A stretch of DNA of 32,000 nt. Origin: Sedimentisphaera cyanobacteriorum. GTDB taxonomy: Bacteria > Planctomycetota > Phycisphaerae > Sedimentisphaerales > Sedimentisphaeraceae. Numbering within the stretch: position 1 is the first letter of the stretch; each line of letters opens with the position of its first letter. The position numbers and the translations under genes were made by a program. A model generated the notes under the pieces. That model saw only the letters and a list, made by a program, of their open reading frames with translations. It searched no databases and was not told the DNA's origin. Below, piece by piece: positions 2,951 through 26,058 of this stretch. Location: NCBI RefSeq assembly GCF_001997385.1, contig NZ_CP019633.1:150001-182000 (forward strand). The letters run 5' to 3'.

Positions 2951-5900
2951 ATGGCAAAGAAAAAGAAAAAATCAAGATTAAATATTAAAGTAGCAATTGC
3001 CGGCCTGCTCGTTTTAGGCATCGCAGGGGCGGGAATATTTTATCTTTGGTATAAAAGCGGAAGAGACCCTCAAAAGTTTATCGTAGAGGCTCAGACCGCA
3101 CTGGAAAATAAGCAGTATAAGCAGGCTGAAGAGCTTTACGGGAAGGCATATCATTTCTCAGAAGGCCTTGATAAAGTAGATATCCTCTTCAAGCTCGCAG
3201 AGATTGCTATGATCGAAGACCCCGGCGATCCCGCTGCGGGGATTGAGCCGAAAGAGCCAAAATGGCGAAAGGCTATGGGAATCTTTGATAAAATTTCTGC
3301 TACAGACCCCAAAAATATCGAAGCACGCCTCAAAATGCTCGATTTCAGCTATGAACTCGCCGATATGGGCAGGGCGGATTCTTGGAATGAAGTAAGAGAA
3401 ATCTCAGACGAGCTTTTACTTCTTTATGATGAGCAGAATAAGGAACCTGACCCTTTCGTAGTGCTCGCACGAGGCAGGGCTTCCCTTGAGATCGCAAAAG
3501 CAGGCAGCGCATCAGATACTCAAAAAGAAATCGATGATGCTAAGAAGTTTATGAATATGCTTCTTAAGCTTGAGCCCAACAACTTCGATGCATTCTGGCA
3601 CCTCGCCCACGCAGAACTGCTTCAGGGCGAGATTGACGATAATGCCGGGATTATAGGTGCAAGAGAAGACAGTGTGAAAAGGGCTGAGGCTATAATACAG
3701 GAATCTATCGATAAAAATCCGGAGATGTCCGAGCCGTACGTTAATATGCTCAAGCTCAAGATACTTGAGAGCAGGTCCGGCAAGACATCAGCCGATGTAA
3801 AAGCAACTATTGAAGAGCAGTATCAGAGGGTTAAGGAAAAATTCCCCGAAAATGCCGAAATTGATTACGTTATGGCCGGCTTCTACTATAAAAACCCGCT
3901 TGATATAGACAAGGCCGTAAAGCTTATTAACAATGCGGTTAAGAAAGAGCCGGAAGATTACGATTACGTATTCCGCGCCTCTATGATTAACTATATGAAA
4001 TACTGCCTGTCCGGGGAAAAAATAAAATGGGTAGATGAGGCCATTCGTCTTGCAAAATCTGCTTTGGAGCTTCCGGAAGCACAGAAAACATCAGGTCCTA
4101 AACAGGCAAGAAATAATAACAATATCCTTGTTTTAAATAATCTGCTCGCAAACTACTACTCAGAAAAGGCCAGGCACACCGAAGGCGAAGATAGAGAAAA
4201 ACTCCTCGCTTCTCTGGAAGAGGCAACAAAGAACATCAAAGACATTGTTATGGTTGAAGAGAACCCCATTCTTATTAAATGGAGGGGGATGCTTGAGTAC
4301 CTGAAGGGGGATCAGGAAAAAGGCCTTCGCAAACTTGTTAAGGCTCAGGAAAAATTTGATGGCCAAAACAGCCCTGATGCTCAGCTTTGTTATTTCATTT
4401 CGCGAATTCTCAAGAGCGAGAGTGTTATTGGAGCAAAACAGAAATATCTTGGAAAGGCAATAGAAAACAATATTGTTTTTGAAGGCAGGCCTGAAGCTGT
4501 TCTTGATTATTCAGAAATCCTTCTTGAACTCCGCTCTCCGGACAACGCCATTTCTCTTGTTCAGAGATATGAACAGGTGATGGGTGAAAATGAGAGAAGC
4601 AACGAGATTCTTATCGAGGCATATATTCAGGCAAATCTGTTCGACAAAGCAGAAAAGCAGATTGAGGCGTATGGGCCTGAATCCCTGAAGGCTCTGAATT
4701 ATAAACTGCAAATAGCCGGCCAGCGGGCTTCTCAGCTTCTTCAGCTCAGAGCAAGGCAGCAGCTCTATAACGAGCCGAATGCGCAGAATAAGATTAGCAG
4801 TTTGAGTGAGGATATAAGAGAGCTTCGACTGAAAAGGCTCAAACTCCTGCGTCAGATTTTTAATAAGTATCCCGAATCGCTAAAAGACTACAGCGGTGTT
4901 TCTGAAATACTGGTTGATGTTTTGCAGGAAGGGTATAAGCCCAAAGCAGTTGAGTTTAATGAGGATTTCCTCGAGAAATACCCCGACAATCCTACAGCGC
5001 GTCTTATGAAAAAGAGGCTCAATAAGCCGGACCCGCTGGTTGTAGATAAAGAAGAGCTAAGGGAGTTTCAGGCTGATATCCTTGAAGAAACAGATATGGA
5101 TGAGATCCAGAAGCAGCTGAGCATAGGCAGGGTTTACCTCAAGGGGCAGGACTATGAAAATGCTTACGGTTATTACGAGAAGGCGCTTGAATTAGACCCC
5201 GATAATGAAGCGGCCATCTCTTCGCTTTTCGATATGGCTATAGCAGAGGCGGATTACGAACGGGCTGCGGGCTATATGGAAACGGCGGTCGAAATGGACA
5301 TCGACGGCTGCGGCGGACAGTTCTTCGCAGGCCGGCTGGCGCTCAAACAGGAAAACTACCAAGAGGCTCTCGACTGTTTCAATGAATGCATTGAAATCAA
5401 GCCCATCTTTCCTTCTGCGTATCTGAATCTCAGCATCATATACAATGAAATGGGCAAGATGGGGCAGGCTGTTGAAAACGCCCGCAAAGCGGCTGAGTTT
5501 TCGCCTAAAGACAGCAATATTTCGCTGAACTATGCTATGGTGCTCTACAAGCGTAATGAAAAGCTTGGAAGCGATGTTACAGACCAGCAGAAAAAGCAGG
5601 CTCAGGATGCTATCCTGAGAGCTATAAGGGTTAATCCTGCGAATATTGAGCTTCAGAGCGTTTATGCTGAGTACATTGCTGATACAAAGCCAGGCAGCGC
5701 GCTTGCTATGAGGCAGACTATCTTTAAGTCTAACCCGACTAAGAAAAATGCGCTTCTGCTTGCAAGAATGGCCTTGAAGAATGCAGATGATGCGTTTAAT
5801 TCACCCAAAAAACAGGCTATGTACAGAATAGCAGAGGATGCATACAACAATGCTCTTGCAATCTCCCCGGGAGACCCGGAGGTGCTTGACGCTTATGCAG

Positions 5901-19356: not shown

Positions 19357-19686
19357 CTAAAAAAGTTCCAGCTGTTTTGGGGCAGGGGGTTTTTGACGGC
19401 TCAATTTGCCCCAAAAAACCTTCATTTTTTCGTATTGCTTGTCGGTTACTACAAGAACCCTTACCTCTCCATCAGGCGGAAGGAAATTTTCTACTCTTCT
19501 GGTGTGTACTTCTGCATTTTCTTTGCTGGGGCAGAATCTTTCATAAACAGAATACTGAACCATTGTGAAGCCGTCTTTGATAAGATTTTTCCGAAAGATA
19601 GAATAACTTTTCCTTGCCATTTTTGTATCAGTGGGCAGATCGAACATAACATAAATCCACATCATTCTGTACTCGCTTAAATTCAT
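19357..19686 (-). CDS. cas2: CRISPR-associated endoribonuclease Cas2
   Basis: 109 aa with the type II Cas2 pattern MWIYVMFDLPTDTK..RK.Y..FRK.L.KDGF.MVQYSVYERF. It starts 10 nt downstream of the cas1 stop. Confidence 0.9.
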   Translation of the reverse strand: MNLSEYRMMWIYVMFDLPTDTKMARKSYSIFRKNLIKDGFTMVQYSVYERFCPSKENAEVHTRRVENFLPPDGEVRVLVVTDKQYEKMKVFWGKLSRQKPPAPKQLELF

Positions 19687-19696
19687 AATCTTTTCC

Positions 19697-20596
19697 TTAA
19701 AGCTCTGGAAGGCTCAGTTTCTTTGCTGACCTATCGAAACATTTAGTTAAAGATGCTGCTGTTTTATGAAGACCTGTCATAAGAGGCCCGGAAACCCCTT
19801 CCATTTCGATGGATGAATGCAGCGTTTCCAGCAGGCGGGCTTTATGTAATTGAGATAAATCCTGCAGCTCAGCGGGATTAGGATTTTCATGCCATATATT
19901 CAGAACTTTTTCCTCTATATAGCCTCGGAAAGGCTCCATTATATCATCTGCAAGGCAGAAAGAGTTGTATCTGCTGCAGTGATGTATCCCAAGAGTAGGC
20001 AAAAGGCCCGCACAGCATATAGCTCTCGCTGTAGCAGCCCGAAGAACCATATAGCCGTAATTAAGCAGATTATTTGGCGGTTCGCCACCTCTTTGCCTCT
20101 TGAATTTTCTTCCGCCCAAAAAATATTTCCAGAAAAGCCTGCTTGCCCTTGCTTCAATATTTTCAGGATCACCTGATTTAACTTTAGAGGCAAGCTCAGC
20201 AATCCCTATTCCGACTTCAGGATTATAATTTGATATTATTTTTCCCTGATGAGTTATTTTCGCTTTTATAAGCTGTTTCCAGAGGCGTTTTTTCAATGGC
20301 TGGGAGGCTTGGGTTTGCTGCTTCTGCCTTTCTGTTTGAACAGAATTTGAATCTATGGGAAGCAGCATACCTGCGGGGTTATGTTCTCCATTGCAAAGAA
20401 CAACTGCTGCCCGGCAGTTAAGCAGCTCTGTAAAAACGCTGTGAGTATATAAAACGGCCGAATTGTCTATCAGGAGAATTCCTATATCTTCACATGGGAT
20501 CGATCGTTCAATACCATTTTGGCTTGCGATTACCAATTGGCCATAACGAATGTTCAGTTTGCAGGAATTTTCTGATATTTCAATAATTCGTTTCAT
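19697..20596 (-). CDS. cas1: CRISPR-associated endonuclease Cas1 (type II)
   Basis: 299 aa. The N-terminus MKRIIEISENSCKLNIRYGQLVI and the segments NNLLNYGYMVLRAATARAI...GIHH...FCLADDIMEPFR are typical of type II Cas1. It is adjacent to cas2 and the array. Confidence 0.9.
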   Translation of the reverse strand: MKRIIEISENSCKLNIRYGQLVIASQNGIERSIPCEDIGILLIDNSAVLYTHSVFTELLNCRAAVVLCNGEHNPAGMLLPIDSNSVQTERQKQQTQASQPLKKRLWKQLIKAKITHQGKIISNYNPEVGIGIAELASKVKSGDPENIEARASRLFWKYFLGGRKFKRQRGGEPPNNLLNYGYMVLRAATARAICCAGLLPTLGIHHCSRYNSFCLADDIMEPFRGYIEEKVLNIWHENPNPAELQDLSQLHKARLLETLHSSIEMEGVSGPLMTGLHKTAASLTKCFDRSAKKLSLPEL

Positions 20597-20602
20597 TATC
20601 TA

Positions 20603-20618
20603 CCCCCCCCCCCCCCCC
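20603..20618. repeat. Homopolymer C16 (G16 on the cas-coding strand)
   Basis: Counted directly: 16 consecutive C from 20603 to 20618. It lies 6 nt upstream of the cas1 ATG (minus strand reads G16-TAGATA-ATG) and 4 nt (TAAA) before repeat 1. Confidence 0.95.
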
Positions 20619-20622
20619 TAAA

Positions 20623-21844
20623 GTTGTAACTTGCTTTCATTTTCATATCGCTTACAATTAAAGAGAATGCAGTTAAAGCCATGGAGCGTTGTAACTTGCT
20701 TTCATTTTCATATCGCTTACAATGAGGCAGACACGCAGAATATAACAAGGTTAGTTGTAACTTGCTTTCATTTTCATATCGCTTACAATTTAATCGAAAA
20801 TCGAAATTTGTCAACCCTTGTTGTAACTTGCTTTCATTTTCATATCGCTTACAATATAGAGGGTGTGCTTGACGCTAAGGGCTACGTTGTAACTTGCTTT
20901 CATTTTCATATCGCTTACAATATATATTTGAATCGTCCGAATACAGCGTTGTGTTGTAACTTGCTTTCATTTTCATATCGCTTACAATCAATGGATATGC
21001 ACGTGATGGCGATTTTATGTTGTAACTTGCTTTCATTTTCATATCGCTTACAATTCTCTGAATTGTAGTGCTGCGAAAATGAACGTTGTAACTTGCTTTC
21101 ATTTTCATATCGCTTACAATGTGCGGACGAATATCCTACAATTGCGTCAAGTTGTAACTTGCTTTCATTTTCATATCGCTTACAATTCCAAAAACTATCT
21201 GTAAGATAACCCTTGCGTTGTAACTTGCTTTCATTTTCATATCGCTTACAATGCTTCGGCACAAAAGAAGAAGCTGAAAAATGTTGTAACTTGCTTTCAT
21301 TTTCATATCGCTTACAATAGCGCAGCTCTTGAACAGTTAACCTTATTTGTTGTAACTTGCTTTCATTTTCATATCGCTTACAATCTACTTGGTATATAAG
21401 CGGGTCAGCCGAAGTTGTAACTTGCTTTCATTTTCATATCGCTTACAATCTGTATCGTCAAACCAATATACGCTTGTCGTTGTAACTTGCTTTCATTTTC
21501 ATATCGCTTACAATCTGCGAAGCGAAGCTGAAGCACACGGTGTCGTTGTAACTTGCTTTCATTTTCATATCGCTTACAATGCGCCCATTTCGATTCCCTT
21601 TGCGAGTCTGGTTGTAACTTGCTTTCATTTTCATATCGCTTACAATGCGCCCATTTCGATTCCCTTTGCGAGTCTGGTTGTAACTTGCTTTCATTTTCAT
21701 ATCGCTTACAATGCCGAATCGGAAATTAAAAACGGAGGAAACGTTGTAACTTGCTTTCATTTTCATATCGCTTACAATGGCGTGCAGTTTAGAGGCATGC
21801 GTTACGGAGTTGTAACTTGCTTTCATTTTCATATCGCTTACAAT
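20623..21844 (+). CRISPR. CRISPR array: 19 identical 36-nt repeats (GTTGTAACTTGCTTTCATTTTCATATCGCTTACAAT) and 18 spacers of 29-31 nt
   Basis: I located every repeat by hand. Starts are 20623, 20688, 20754, 20820, 20886, 20953, 21019, 21085, 21151, 21217, 21283, 21349, 21414, 21479, 21545, 21611, 21677, 21743 and 21809, with no degenerate copy. Plus-strand crRNA orientation is inferred from tracrRNA complementarity and from similarity to the Neisseria type II-C repeat. Confidence 0.98.
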
Positions 21845-21847
21845 TCG

Positions 21848-21886
21848 CCGCTTGTAAGCTCCTGATATGAAGGAGTTTACAAGCGG
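21848..21886. other. 15-bp stem-loop at the junction between the array and the cas9 3' end
   Basis: CCGCTTGTAAGCTCC (21848-21862), loop TGATATGAA, GGAGTTTACAAGCGG (21872-21886), with 14 Watson-Crick pairs plus 1 G-T. It is flanked by an A7/T7 run at 21894-21900. It is not a canonical terminator in either direction. Confidence 0.5.
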
Positions 21887-21926: not shown

Positions 21927-24900
21927 TTATTTCCATTCTTTTTCATATGAGTTACCTTCTCTCTCTGGTTTTTTTACGGAATAATATTTTCCCATCATAT
22001 CAACTTCAAATTTTTCTAATTTTGCATTTTTGTAAGAGAATTCTTTAGTGAAACTCTTTCCCTCCTCGTCAAATGAAGATCCATCATATTTTTTTAGCGA
22101 TATCACAGGCCTCCCCCCCCTTATATAATCTATGTAATACATTTGATCTTGGAATTTAACGAGGTCATCTTTAAATAAGGAAAATTTGAATTCAAACTCA
22201 TTTGTTAGTTCCGGCCAGTCTTCATACGGCGTATCTCCTTTTGAAAGATATTTCGAAGGAAGAGGGCTTTTTGCTGCAAAATCAGATGCGTAAAGCGGAA
22301 CAGCATAGTTTTTCCCGTCAGGTCCTTTGTAAAAATCTGCTCTGACGATATGTCCCATTCCGCAAAATCCCTTGTTGAACGGCTGAACCCTTCCCTTGAT
22401 ATTTGCTTTTCTCCAGCTTTTAGGGTTTTGAGAATGGGCTTCTCCGGTAACTTTCCTCCTCGGCATTCTAGAAACAAAGATATCGTCTAACTTCTTGAGC
22501 ACATCTTCTCTGAAACTCTCCCACGGCTCAAAATTGCAGTTTTTAAGCCTGCCGTTTATTGCCTTTCCCTTATTTTCCAAATCTTTGGCTATCATAGAAG
22601 CAAGGTAAACATGCCCCTGTGTTGAACAGGCAACTACAATTGCATCCAGAGCGTGGTGAAGATCGTTTTCTTCTCTGTGTTTCTTAAGCCCCCAGTGATA
22701 CCGCAGAAACGAAGTTACCCTTCCTGATCTGAGCTGAACTCTGCTCTTTTCGTTTATGTCTTCTCTTTGTGATTTTGAAAAATCGAGATGTTTTTTGAGA
22801 AAACCCGCAATCTCTTTGGCTGCGTATCTGGTATCATTAAGATTTCTTGAAATGAAGCGGTCTTTATCTTCCTCGTCAAATTTCTTTGTAAGAAGCTTTC
22901 GTTTTTTGGCAGAAGGCATTGTTCCCATATGCCCCACTCTAACTACAAACTCTTCCCATTTCTTTGGATCCTTGCTTAGATATTCAAAGGGGAGCATGTT
23001 TTTCTTTTCCTGATTGGCCTTTTTTGTGCAGAGAACCTTATTGTTGAGGCTGTCGTCGAATGACCTGCTTATCGGGATAATGTGGTCAATTTCGCAGTCC
23101 AGCAGACTGCCTGAAATATCTTCGCCGCTGTATGGGCAGGCGTGGATATATTGGCCCGTATAAGGGCAGCGGTATTTCTGCTGCATTGCGAGCCTGAATC
23201 TCAGCAGATTCTGGCCTTCTTCCGGATTGAGCCCGAATTCCCTGCAAAGCTCTTTGGCCTGCTCTTTCTGATCTCTGTAGCGTGTTTGTTTCTTGTAAAT
23301 GTCGTTGAGCTTTTTCTGGCTTGAAGCGAGTTCAGTTGCTATTTCTATGTTGATTTGGTCTATTGGGTATTCGCTGGAGTATTTTCTGATTACAGCATTT
23401 ATCAGCTTTCTTGTTTGGCTGAAGGTTCTCATTACAACAGGATTATTTTCAAAATCCCCATGGTAGGGTTGGAGTATGGATTGTTTTTCATGTTCCTTAT
23501 CTTTGAAGCGGGGATCGTTTTCAGCAGCAGCTATTCTGGCATCTTCAAAATATTTACCCTCTTCCATATGCGGAAGCAGCTTTTGAAAAGCCTCTTTTGA
23601 AAAATTGGCAACTTCCTTCATATTGATAAAAAGAGCAGCCTTTGCAATCTCTTCATCAATACCTTTTTCTTTAAAATAGTTTCCTCTTGTTTCATCTGTT
23701 TTATGGTAAACAAGGGCCTCAGAAATTGCCTCTATTGTTTCAGGGCTATCAGCTATCTCACTCCATTTATCATTGCCGAGGGTATTTGTGATGCAGTCTT
23801 TTATCTTGTGGTATCCCTTTAATTCAACGAAATCCTGCTTTGATTCAAATTGTTTGAGATACTCAAGTTTGCTTTTGAATTCTTCCTCTCCCTTAGGGTA
23901 TTTGTTCAGTATCTGGACAAACCTGTATTTTGAAGGAATCTCGAGCTTGGCTCTTAGAATATAATAATAAAAGTCGATTTTTTGAACCTTCGAACTGCCG
24001 TACTTTTCTGCTCTCCTTGCATACACCTTCCTTATAAGCTCTTTATATTCTTGCGAATAATCTTCCACGTGCTCTAATGTTCCGGTCTCTCGGTCTAATG
24101 ATTGAATTGCTGCCGCTTTTATTTGATGTTTATCTTCAAACAAAGGTTCTTTTTCATTAACCTTGCAGGACAGTTTCTGATTATATTCAGGATTTTCCAT
24201 TTGGTAAGAGCAAAGGTTGAATCTAATATTTTCGTTAATATCAAGGAAATTTCGGATTTGGGAAAATTTCAGTTTTTTGTTTTTATAGGCAAGCTTCTTG
24301 ATGCTTTCCCTTTGCTCATCAGTTGGAGGTTTTCCGCCTATCAGAAGACTGTTCAGCCTGTTCAGCAAAACGTAGCGTTCATTGAGATAGCCTTCGCGGG
24401 GAGCGCATATTTCGCCGGTGAATTTGCACCGGTTCATCATCTTGAGGAGTTTATCTTCCTGTATTCCAGCTTCATAAAGCAGCACTTCATCAAGATATCT
24501 CCTAAGCAGTTCATCACTCGCTGATTCGTTGCCAAGTGCTTTCTGTTTTTTAAAAATAATTATAGTTTCATCTTTAAGTAAATTTCGGTGAATGGATTTA
24601 GTGTAATCATTTTCAGAATTGCGAAGCCTGACATTTTCACCTTCTAAAAAATTAACAGCGAACATTTCGCCAATTGTTTGGCATCTGCTCTCTTTGAGCT
24701 GCTCTCTGATATTCTGCAGACCTTTCTTAACCTTTCCTTCTTCGGAAGATCCGGATGGTTTTTCTGATTCTTCTGCTTTTGTGAGAAATGAAACGCCTCT
24801 ATGTCGTGCTATGTGATACAAAGCCCGGAAAAACTCTTCGTTTGTAAGTTTTCTTGAAAGTGCTTCTTTTCTAATATTCCATGGGCTCCATTTGTTTTTG

Positions 24901-25262
24901 TCGGTGCTGGCAGGGGGGATCATTTTCCTGCAGGCCTGTTTGAATCTTATGTTTGGCTCTATAAGCCCAAATTCCTTGGCAAGAGAAACAAATCTTTTCA
25001 TCCTTTTCGTTTTGCGTCTTCCTGTTAATCTTGCCCTTCGTTTTTCGCCTCTTATTTTTGCAAGGCTTTTTTGTTCATTGTGGGGCGGCTGAAAAGTCCT
25101 TACGCCTGAATCTATTATTTCTCCTCCCGATATCTTTAGTTTTTTCTTGTGTTCGCCTTCGTATGTTTGGTAATCATATTCTTCTTCTTCAAGATTAACC
25201 AAAGCCCAGCCTACTGAACCAATTCCTATATCCAGTCCTAAAACAACTCTGTTTTTTGCCAT
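21927..25262 (-). CDS. cas9: Cas9 endonuclease, type II-C, 1111 aa
   Basis: RuvC-I VLGLDIGIGSVGWALV (D11). Arg-rich bridge helix GEKRRARLTGRRKTKRMKRF. RuvC-II IDQINIEIATELA. HNH LDCEIDHIIPISRSFDDSLNNKVLCTKKANQEKKN (His codon at 23082-23084, residue 727). RuvC-III NDLHHALDAIVVAC. It sits next to the array, cas1, cas2 and the tracrRNA. Confidence 0.97.
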   Translation of the reverse strand: MAKNRVVLGLDIGIGSVGWALVNLEEEEYDYQTYEGEHKKKLKISGGEIIDSGVRTFQPPHNEQKSLAKIRGEKRRARLTGRRKTKRMKRFVSLAKEFGLIEPNIRFKQACRKMIPPASTDKNKWSPWNIRKEALSRKLTNEEFFRALYHIARHRGVSFLTKAEESEKPSGSSEEGKVKKGLQNIREQLKESRCQTIGEMFAVNFLEGENVRLRNSENDYTKSIHRNLLKDETIIIFKKQKALGNESASDELLRRYLDEVLLYEAGIQEDKLLKMMNRCKFTGEICAPREGYLNERYVLLNRLNSLLIGGKPPTDEQRESIKKLAYKNKKLKFSQIRNFLDINENIRFNLCSYQMENPEYNQKLSCKVNEKEPLFEDKHQIKAAAIQSLDRETGTLEHVEDYSQEYKELIRKVYARRAEKYGSSKVQKIDFYYYILRAKLEIPSKYRFVQILNKYPKGEEEFKSKLEYLKQFESKQDFVELKGYHKIKDCITNTLGNDKWSEIADSPETIEAISEALVYHKTDETRGNYFKEKGIDEEIAKAALFINMKEVANFSKEAFQKLLPHMEEGKYFEDARIAAAENDPRFKDKEHEKQSILQPYHGDFENNPVVMRTFSQTRKLINAVIRKYSSEYPIDQINIEIATELASSQKKLNDIYKKQTRYRDQKEQAKELCREFGLNPEEGQNLLRFRLAMQQKYRCPYTGQYIHACPYSGEDISGSLLDCEIDHIIPISRSFDDSLNNKVLCTKKANQEKKNMLPFEYLSKDPKKWEEFVVRVGHMGTMPSAKKRKLLTKKFDEEDKDRFISRNLNDTRYAAKEIAGFLKKHLDFSKSQREDINEKSRVQLRSGRVTSFLRYHWGLKKHREENDLHHALDAIVVACSTQGHVYLASMIAKDLENKGKAINGRLKNCNFEPWESFREDVLKKLDDIFVSRMPRRKVTGEAHSQNPKSWRKANIKGRVQPFNKGFCGMGHIVRADFYKGPDGKNYAVPLYASDFAAKSPLPSKYLSKGDTPYEDWPELTNEFEFKFSLFKDDLVKFQDQMYYIDYIRGGRPVISLKKYDGSSFDEEGKSFTKEFSYKNAKLEKFEVDMMGKYYSVKKPEREGNSYEKEWK

Positions 25263-25289
25263 TTGTAAAACCTTTTTCCTTGAAATTAT

Positions 25290-25430
25290 TTTTTAAACGC
25301 TATAATAATATTCGAAAGCAAGTTACAATAAGCCTTTGCTTAGCAAAGGTTGCGGGGTTAGCCATATTCGGTATCCCCTCATTTATTGTTTTCTAAGGGT
25401 AAGAGCATTCCTCTTGCCCTTTCTAGATTT
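25290..25430 (+). ncRNA. tracrRNA (both ends uncertain)
   Basis: 25314-25329 GAAAGCAAGTTACAAT is the reverse complement of repeat nt 1-16 (15/16 matches). It is followed by the nexus-like AAGCC and hairpin CCTTTGC-TTA-GCAAAGG (25333-25349), then a GGGG...CCCC stem (25354-25378) with a T-rich tail, then a 10-bp hairpin (25396-25420). The motif GCAAGTTACAATAAGCC resembles the Spy and Nme tracrRNAs. A possible promoter is TTGAAA (25280-25285) with TATAAT (25301-25306). Confidence 0.8.
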
Positions 25431-25553
25431 AAACCTGCCAATCCCAACATTCCTTTTATAAAATACAAAAAGATTTTAAATTTAATTTTAGCATTTTAAA
25501 AGTTAGAATCAAGTAATAATGATATAATATAATCAAATATTTTCCCGCCGCAT

Positions 25554-25579
25554 AAAAAAAAGCCCCGATTTCTCGGGGC
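25554..25579 (-). terminator. Rho-independent terminator of hsp20
   Basis: The minus strand reads GCCCCGA-GAAA-TCGGGGC followed by T8, starting 15 nt after the hsp20 stop codon. Confidence 0.8.
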
Positions 25580-25593
25580 TTTGGGTTGTTTAA

Positions 25594-26058
25594 TTATTTG
25601 ATCTCGATTTTCTTCCTGCCGGCTCCTTCTTCGGTTTTCGGAACAGTAATCTTTAGCAGTCCGTCGCTGAAGCTCGCATCGATTTTGTTCTCATCAACGT
25701 TGTGAGCAAACGGAACCACTCTCCTGAACGAACCGAACGTCCGTTCTACGTGGTAATAGTTTGAATCTTTCTCTTCGTTTGTGTCCTTCTTTTCGCCTTC
25801 GAGGATCAGCGTATTGTCGTTCAGCGTAACATTAATATCATCCTTGTTCATGCCCGCCAGCTCAGCGGTAACCAAGTAGTTCTTCTCGTCCTCGGAAACA
25901 TCCACGCTCGGGACAAATTTGCTCATCAATCCTTCCGCAGGCCCGAAAGCGGGGAAGCCGCTGAACATATCATCGAACATCCTGTCGATCTTATCTGCCA
26001 TACTCATAGGTGCGTTTGGAGTCTGATTATTGTTCCTTCTTGAAAGTACGTTCCTCAT
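25594..26058 (-). CDS. Small heat-shock protein, Hsp20/alpha-crystallin family
   Basis: Alpha-crystallin domain pattern: PSVDVSEDEKNYLVTAELAGMNKDDINVTL..NTLILEGEKK...ERTFGSFRRVVPF...VDENKIDASFSDGLLKITVPK. GGAGAA RBS. Confidence 0.9.
   Translation of the reverse strand: MRNVLSRRNNNQTPNAPMSMADKIDRMFDDMFSGFPAFGPAEGLMSKFVPSVDVSEDEKNYLVTAELAGMNKDDINVTLNDNTLILEGEKKDTNEEKDSNYYHVERTFGSFRRVVPFAHNVDENKIDASFSDGLLKITVPKTEEGAGRKKIEIK

Follow-up and report, generated by a model that had tools for sequence, protein, structure and literature searches.

The intergenic DNA upstream of cas9 in a 32-kb stretch of the Sedimentisphaera cyanobacteriorum genome (contig NZ_CP019633.1, positions 150,001 to 182,000; hereafter the window, with coordinates counted from its first nucleotide) most probably encodes the trans-activating CRISPR RNA (tracrRNA) of a type II-C CRISPR-Cas locus. 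We place the predicted gene at 25311-25430 on the plus strand, where it would be transcribed divergently from cas9 and give rise to a short-form tracrRNA, and we assign this reading a probability of roughly 0.85. It relies on observations of several kinds, namely complementarity to the CRISPR repeat, uniqueness within the window, position, conservation, covariation and a conserved promoter. The locus consists of cas2, cas1, a CRISPR array and cas9, with all cas genes on the minus strand, and the tracrRNA element lies inside the 331-nt intergenic region between cas9 and hsp20 (25263-25593). A first-pass annotation of this DNA had already proposed a plus-strand tracrRNA divergent from cas9, a proposal that is now backed by conservation and covariation in 36 relatives. 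For this comparison we used about 45 metagenomic or metagenome-assembled genome (MAG) loci, whose Cas9 proteins are 43-54% identical to that of the window, and built a covariance model (R1) from 37 distinct sequences (the 36 relatives and the window).

The element starts with a 16-nt anti-repeat, GAAAGCAAGTTACAAT (25314-25329, plus strand), which pairs with nucleotides 1-16 of the repeat through 15 Watson-Crick pairs and one G:U pair, just as the first-pass annotation had described. When up to three mismatches were allowed, this was the sole match in the 32-kb window outside the 19 array repeats (0.59 expected by chance). The better anti-repeat elsewhere that the annotation had considered as a challenge to its proposal was not found in the window at this threshold, and neither was a second half of the anti-repeat outside the array. 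Co-folding of the repeat with the tracrRNA, which had also been suggested, gave a 16-bp duplex, an AA dinucleotide and the hairpins in the canonical order, and a single-guide RNA (sgRNA) folded likewise. In most of the 25 relatives whose repeat is known, the pairing comprises 15/16 Watson-Crick pairs, or 16/16 when G:U pairs are counted. In loci L009 and L092, the repeat GTTGTGGCTTGCTCTC pairs with the anti-repeat GAGATCAAGTTATAAT at 15/16 positions including G:U pairs and at 11/16 by Watson-Crick pairs, which works only as plus-sense RNA.

Downstream of the anti-repeat, the AAGCC and three hairpins that had been noted before were recovered. Hairpin 1 (25331-25351), at a nexus-like position after the AA, is part of the minimum-free-energy fold and shows compensatory changes in 4/6 pairs. 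Hairpin 2 (25352-25380) combines a proximal stem, GCGGGG...CCCCTC, in which A:U to G:C compensatory changes were observed, with a distal stem whose sequence is variable, yet which is present in every per-sequence fold. It is followed by a conserved single-stranded linker (25381-25394), of which 25386-25393 (UUGUUUUC) is complementary to nucleotides 1-8 of the anti-repeat, and by hairpin 3 together with a weak U-rich tail (25395-25430). The 11-bp stem of hairpin 3 (25395-25421) carries compensatory changes in all ten counted pairs, and in the relatives a T5-T8 run follows it; on the minus strand, hairpin 3 has no such run. Hairpin 3 is thus a probable intrinsic terminator and would mark the 3' end of the tracrRNA, even though a terminator scan did not flag it owing to the weak U-tract of the window. 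Given this tail, the 3' end can be placed less confidently (approximately 25421-25430), and some transcripts may read through. The sgRNA proposed in the first-pass annotation folds as designed, but reaches only to 25393 and thus lacks hairpin 3, which is conserved. An sgRNA including hairpin 3 folds as designed too and is the safer design.

Across the relatives, a tracrRNA-like element was located on the strand opposite to cas9, 45-81 nt upstream of its ATG. R1 returned one strong match (79-130 bits) per locus in 44 related loci, always upstream of cas9 and divergent from it, while all remaining matches scored at most 31 bits; the window match spans 25311-25434 (85.3 bits, E ~1e-15). In the model alignment, 97.9% of the pair cells hold standard pairs, and 16/28 pairs are changed on both sides. 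None of 500 shuffles reached the observed values, and slid controls remained at or below 65% paired. This alignment was fitted to the model; RNAalifold run on a plain MAFFT alignment yielded the same helices. A more distant Cas9 group (37-40% identity) gave only array repeats in a pattern search and nothing with R1.

The promoter that would drive this RNA is conserved as well. In the window, a -35 box TTGAAA (25280-25285, plus strand), with a T-run just 5' of it (25273-25277), is followed after a 15-nt spacer by a -10 box TATAAT (25301-25306), 7 nt before G25314. We aligned 37 sequences anchored on the TTG upstream of the anti-repeat and observed a TTG-containing hexamer at -35, which is a perfect TTGACA in 17/37 and is preceded by a T-run (92-95% T). 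The end of the -35 box lies exactly 30 nt from the anti-repeat in 25/37 sequences and 29-31 nt from it in 32/37. The -10 element of the relatives reads TAnnnT after a spacer of mostly 17 nt, with T at 89%, A at 92% and the final T at 70% at positions +23, +24 and +28, respectively. A promoter scan of the window also listed TTGAAA-18-AATAAT at 25280-25309. The distance between anti-repeat and promoter is fixed in the clade, whereas that between cas9 ATG and promoter varies (10-45 nt). Such a sigma-70-type promoter at a fixed distance suggests that transcription would start at, or 1-3 nt before, G25314, and that the functional RNA would therefore be a short form of approximately 110-117 nt with a 16-nt anti-repeat. 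The TTGAAA-15-TATAAT promoter and the short form starting near 25313, which the first-pass annotation had offered as an alternative, are hence present and backed by conservation in the 36 relatives.

We then propose the following scheme. What it says on expression, on the exact ends of the RNA, on crRNA promoters and on function with Cas9 is predicted from sequence. The tracrRNA would be transcribed away from cas9 and would carry, from 5' to 3', the 16-nt anti-repeat, hairpin 1, hairpin 2, the linker and the terminator hairpin. Nucleotides 1-16 of the repeat in the CRISPR RNA (crRNA) would pair with the 5' anti-repeat, and the dual RNA would load Cas9.

The conserved structure could in principle belong to something other than a plus-strand small RNA (sRNA), namely a structured minus-strand 5' leader of cas9 or an inert degenerate repeat, given that G-C and A-U covariation is strand-neutral and that a cas9 leader may cross the same DNA. 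The plus strand is, however, fixed by an excess of G:U over A:C cells (32 versus 9 on the plus reading), by a T-run that follows hairpin 3 on this strand only, by the direction of the promoter and by the wobble pairing in L009/L092, which functions only as plus-sense RNA. Moreover, the anti-repeat, nexus-like hairpin and 3' hairpins stand in canonical order on the plus strand only, and an inert relic would not be expected to retain 15/16 complementarity and covarying stems where the Cas9 proteins share only 43-54% identity. We therefore regard this explanation as very improbable. A different alternative concerns the length of the RNA. The segment 25290-25309 (plus strand) matches the reverse complement of repeat nucleotides 17-36 at 14/20 positions if a 4-nt bulge is allowed (shuffle p ~0.0025), and the first-pass annotation had accordingly considered a long form pairing with the entire 36-nt repeat. 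Such a form, starting at or before 25290, could draw on this above-chance complementarity, on the 7/25 relatives that keep 13-14/20 in the same test, and on S. pyogenes, where two promoters give rise to two tracrRNA forms, of which the long one acts as a repressor of Pcas (PMC11417352, PMC10120712). This long form, tracr-L, depends on two features: a second promoter, and a 5' extension carrying both a repeat-like segment and a spacer-like one, the latter matching Pcas beside a protospacer-adjacent motif (PAM) (PMC11417352, PMC10120712). The spacer-like match would cover about 11 nt.

Although the 14/20 match is real, pairing over the full 36 nt found no support. Of the 25 relatives, 17 show no more than chance matching in the 5' half, which coincides with the spacer and the conserved -10 box of the tracrRNA promoter. 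We therefore consider it a relic of a former full-length anti-repeat and not a selected pairing region. No conserved promoter was detected upstream of the -35 box, where the DNA consists of the cas9 ribosome-binding site (RBS) and coding sequence, and a repeat-like segment is absent at 25100-25313. In folds of 5'-extended RNAs, the anti-repeat paired with the downstream linker and never with upstream sequence, and the co-fold with the repeat left the 5' half unused. A tracr-L-like single guide that would repress the cas9 promoter likewise found no support, given the lack of a repeat-like segment and the folds of the extended RNAs in particular, and we judge a long form of either kind to be improbable; autoregulation of cas9 by its tracrRNA is likewise purely conjectural and of low probability. 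In the short-form scheme, the decayed half of the ancestral full-length anti-repeat would instead have been turned into the tracrRNA promoter and would lie outside the main RNA.

Several points weigh against the identification of 25311-25430 as a short-form tracrRNA gene. Rfam gave no match over 25200-25620, either at the gathering threshold or at E<=10, and sub-threshold matches reflect the hsp20 terminator only; this null result is nonetheless not evidence against function, since neither sequence nor structure is conserved among tracrRNAs of different families (PMC3737331). A literature search on the Sedimentisphaera Cas9 found no paper. The promoter spacer is shortened to 15 nt in the window, as opposed to 17 nt in most relatives, and the tail after hairpin 3, TTTCTAGATTT, is a weak U-tract, such that the 3' end could lie further downstream. 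The 16-bp duplex is shorter than those of the best-studied systems, and the search for a second anti-repeat covered only 32 kb of the genome. Finally, duplex energy does not single out the site: across the whole window, RNAduplex gave -23.4 kcal/mol here versus -29.3 at 5541. The top RNAduplex sites lie in coding sequence, are G:U-rich and bulged, and form a continuous chance tail; it is the contiguous perfect complement together with its context, not the energy, that marks the true anti-repeat site. The segment 5541-5585 (plus strand), located in a 1581-aa open reading frame (ORF), was rejected as a chance match, with many G:U pairs and bulges and no scaffold after it.

The divergent arrangement also constrains the expression of cas9. 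The cas9 ATG is separated from the tracrRNA -35 box by 17 nt in the window and by a median of 26 nt in the clade, and this stretch holds the RBS. No independent cas9 promoter can fit there, so throughout the clade cas9 must have a promoter that overlaps either the promoter or the gene of the tracrRNA. Overlap of the promoter is hence forced, while antisense overlap of the RNAs would not be required. The first-pass annotation, whose cas9 start (ATG at 25262, minus strand) is confirmed, with the RuvC motif GLDIGIGSVGW beginning at residue 8, had stated that both the cas9 promoter and its 5' untranslated region (UTR) must overlap the tracrRNA. The 17-nt geometry bears this out for the promoter, but an antisense 5' UTR is not obligatory, a promoter-only overlap being equally possible. 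We found no conserved cas9-sense sigma-70 promoter at a common position in the clade, and candidates were scattered over three zones. One class is the repeat-derived TTGCTC-16-TATAAT inside the relic, which was seen in 9-10 loci and is broken in the window by the 4-nt insertion; another is antisense to the conserved linker (GTTATAAT); and the last comprises sites beyond the tracrRNA terminator, including the window site 25512-25485.

Two arrangements of the cas9 promoter can be considered. In one of them, which we think rather unlikely, both genes would share a bidirectional promoter. The tracrRNA -10 element, TATAATA (25301-25307), has a symmetry that makes it TATTAT on the cas9 strand, where it could act with TTGTAA (25328-25323) across 15 nt (TATTAT at 25307-25302; 25302-25328 overall, minus strand) as an alternative candidate cas9 promoter, with a start at approximately 25294-25295. 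A start at about 25294 would be 18-19 bp from that of the tracrRNA and would leave a 32-nt leader; the two RNAs would not overlap, and RNA polymerase could be bound only one way at any given time. The bottom-strand hexamer matches at 5/6 positions and the -35-like hexamer at 4/6, the leader is of typical length and includes the RBS AAGG, and the repeat-derived TTGCTC-16-TATAAT occurs on the cas9 strand in the same zone in 9-10 relatives. The 18-bp geometry of the divergent starts and the -7T/-11A reciprocity also match published bidirectional promoters (PMC10268837). Unlike in those promoters, however, the full TAnnnTA symmetry is found in only 5/37 clade members, with bottom-strand hexamers mostly at 2-3/6, and the spacers on both strands are of a suboptimal 15 nt; besides, these promoter rules may not be those of Planctomycetota.

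The other arrangement, possible though still not probable in our view, would have cas9 transcribed from a promoter in 25431-25558, past the 3' end of the tracrRNA, such as the candidate at 25512-25485. The leader, about 215 nt long, would in that case run antisense to the whole tracrRNA gene, and the two genes would be negatively coupled through convergent transcription and RNase III cleavage of the leader:tracrRNA duplex. The candidate at 25512-25485 (TTGATT-16-TGcTAAAAT, minus strand), which the first-pass annotation had pointed out, is present as a motif with 9/12 matches and a TG before the -10 box, and a second promoter-like match lies at 25500-25473. Hairpin 3 without a T-run on the minus strand would not terminate such a transcript, read-through from further upstream can be discounted because of the hsp20 terminator, and most relatives have 130-1100 nt of non-coding DNA past the tracrRNA. 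Yet the 20 promoter-like sites counted compare with 14.8 +/- 3.5 expected, which is the chance level for this AT-rich region. The zone contains no clade-wide conserved block, candidate positions are scattered in the relatives, and two of these leave merely 55-83 nt there. Overall, the DNA past the tracrRNA terminator is non-coding for 55-1100 nt in the relatives, and an all-against-all BLAST gave sub-clade blocks only. In one of these relatives, L087, a partial repeat comprising the 3' half (ACGGATCAGTTACAAT) stands just past the tracrRNA terminator, 198-177 nt before the ATG of cas9. Its -10-like TACAAT points through the tracrRNA gene to cas9 and thereby speaks for a promoter in this zone. 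Similar blocks were seen in L020 and L027, but not in the window, and the partial repeat is a candidate repeat-derived cas9 promoter in that sub-clade.

The short-form RNA might furthermore hide its own anti-repeat. In the folds predicted for unbound tracrRNA, 37/37 sequences show a helix between 5-12 nt of the anti-repeat and the linker that joins hairpin 2 to the terminator, and RNAalifold agrees. The part of the anti-repeat involved varies, comprising nucleotides 8-16 in relatives, nucleotides 1-8 in the window (25314-25321 with 25386-25393) and nucleotides 12-16 in L089. This variation between lineages might point to selection for masking in the unbound RNA and not for a fixed geometry. 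The helix is suggestive but not proven, because the variation in the aligned register is one-sided and G:U-compatible only. As a speculative and, on balance, doubtful extension, tracrRNA and cas9 expression could be hard-wired in this clade through a shared or crossed promoter, with polymerase occupancy or an antisense leader setting the Cas9:tracrRNA ratio, while free tracrRNA would mask its own anti-repeat.

Regarding the surrounding genes, cas2 (19357-19686), cas1 (19697-20596; NMENI-type model, 249 bits) and cas9 (21927-25262; 1111 aa, TIGR01865, 536 bits) are all located on the minus strand. The window Cas9 is 100% identical to the Cas9 of S. cyanobacteriorum, a member of the Phycisphaerae. 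Its best relatives among solved structures reached E=2e-104, with only moderate identity, and we take these entries to be NmeCas9. The Cas9 of C. jejuni, presumably structure 5x2g, is smaller and more distant (E=9e-43). No ORF for csn2 or cas4 was found within the window locus, whose Cas proteins are a compact Cas9, Cas1 and Cas2 only, and this absence together with the best solved relatives at E=2e-104 is the basis of the type II-C assignment. On the other side of the intergenic region lies hsp20 (25594-26058, minus strand), whose strong terminator (25559-25582, minus strand; 10-bp stem followed by T8) bounds this region.

The array (20623-21844) contains 19 identical 36-nt repeats (GTTGTAACTTGCTTTCATTTTCATATCGCTTACAAT) and 18 spacers of 29-31 nt, with the crRNA sense on the plus strand. 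Every window repeat carries TTGCTT-16-TACAAT, and the terminal TAYAAT was kept in 24/25 relatives, whereas the middle of the repeat, which is unpaired with the tracrRNA, is variable. Repeat-internal crRNA promoters are known from type II-C systems (PMC5965381), and the -10-like terminal TACAAT suggests that they may be used here (PMC3737331, PMC5965381). The crRNAs would thus probably start inside the spacers on the plus strand, as in N. meningitidis and C. jejuni (PMC5965381, PMC3737331). Neither the array, compared with phages by BLAST, nor the intergenic region, compared with plasmids, gave a match, and no PAM could therefore be inferred. Array spacers compared with the cas9-upstream intergenic region showed no match of at least 12 nt, and only chance 12-mers occurred elsewhere in the window; a crRNA-based self-regulator of cas9 was rejected, as no spacer matched the region upstream of cas9. 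Two adjacent spacers are identical (GCGCCCATTTCGATTCCCTTTGCGAGTCTG at 21581-21610 and 21647-21676), which represents a duplicated spacer-repeat unit. Immediately past the last repeat, nucleotides 20-35 of the repeat recur in inverted form at 21852-21871 (TTGTAAGC-TCCT-GATATGAA; 16/16 matches, a 4-nt insert, p ~0.015). This copy and 21871-21886 make up a 16-bp hairpin (region 21848-21886) located between the array and the stop codon of cas9. This post-array hairpin (21852-21886) is followed by a T-run on neither strand, and L089 has a hairpin at the same place.

Between the first repeat (20623) and the cas1 ATG (20596), we observed a C16 run (20603-20618; G16 on the cas1 strand), the sole homopolymer of at least 10 bases in the window, which occupies the position expected for the cas1 RBS. 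Relatives with the same layout have C7 (L088) or C5 (L026) and lack a C16 of the window type. The tract could provide phase-variable control of cas1-cas2 or else be an assembly artefact. In nearly all relatives, the array directly follows cas9 in the opposite sense. In the window, cas9 and cas1 flank the array, whose direction of reading is opposite to that of the cas genes; L024/L088 and L026 have this layout too. Other layouts include cas9-cas1-cas2-array in L087, cas9-cas1-cas2 without an array within the fetched stretch in L027, arrays flanking cas1-cas2 on both sides in L009/L092, an inverted cas1-cas2 pair in L091, and the absence of cas1/cas2 within 5 kb in L006, L015 and L089. L036, whose Cas9 is 47% identical, had no array and no R1 match in 13.6 kb and may be an orphan or rearranged locus.

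Compared with known systems, the window RNAs presumably resemble those of N. meningitidis, judging by the repeat termini GTTGTA...TACAAT and by an anti-repeat ending in ACAAU that is followed by AAGxC and stem-loops. The anti-repeat of N. meningitidis pairs with nearly the whole repeat. In contrast to this system, the window anti-repeat comprises 16 nt at the predicted 5' end of the transcript, the scaffold has three 3' hairpins and a linker complementary to the anti-repeat, and the array lies between cas9 and cas1. Common to both are the restriction to cas9, cas1 and cas2, an array opposite to the cas genes and the -10-like TACAAT repeat end (PMC3737331, PMC5965381). C. jejuni likewise transcribes its array opposite to the cas operon from promoters in the repeats (PMC3737331, PMC5965381), but its scaffold sequence is different, and its tracrRNA is not known to abut the start of cas9, unlike that of the window. 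In the type II-A system of S. pyogenes, the tracrRNA and the cas genes lie on opposite strands, with the former upstream (PMC5965381), and the short form also starts near the anti-repeat. This system differs by the second promoter of tracr-L and by a 5' extension complementary to Pcas beside an NGG PAM (PMC11417352, PMC10120712), whereas neither the tracr-L module nor a second promoter was detectable in the window, which is of type II-C and not II-A.

An anti-repeat upstream of cas9 is the commonest arrangement in types II-A and II-C (PMC3737331), and the window tracrRNA is therefore an ordinary kind of element. Its peculiarities are modest, namely a minimal anti-repeat, a promoter built from a relic, the forced promoter overlap with cas9 and the possible masking of the anti-repeat, and the current understanding of type II systems is left unchanged. 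What the analysis provides for this uncharacterised Cas9 clade of Phycisphaerae and related Planctomycetota (~45 loci) is a tracrRNA that has good support and comes with its strand, ends and scaffold. The RNA is absent from Rfam and from the literature searched. A working sgRNA can therefore be designed at once, provided that the third hairpin is kept. The 16-nt anti-repeat, which would begin with the first nucleotide of the transcript, and the relic-derived promoter illustrate the evolution of a tracrRNA from a repeat copy. Lastly, the tight divergent layout with cas9 is conserved, which makes this clade a simple system for asking whether Cas9 and its RNA cofactor are kept in balance by promoter overlap or by antisense transcription.

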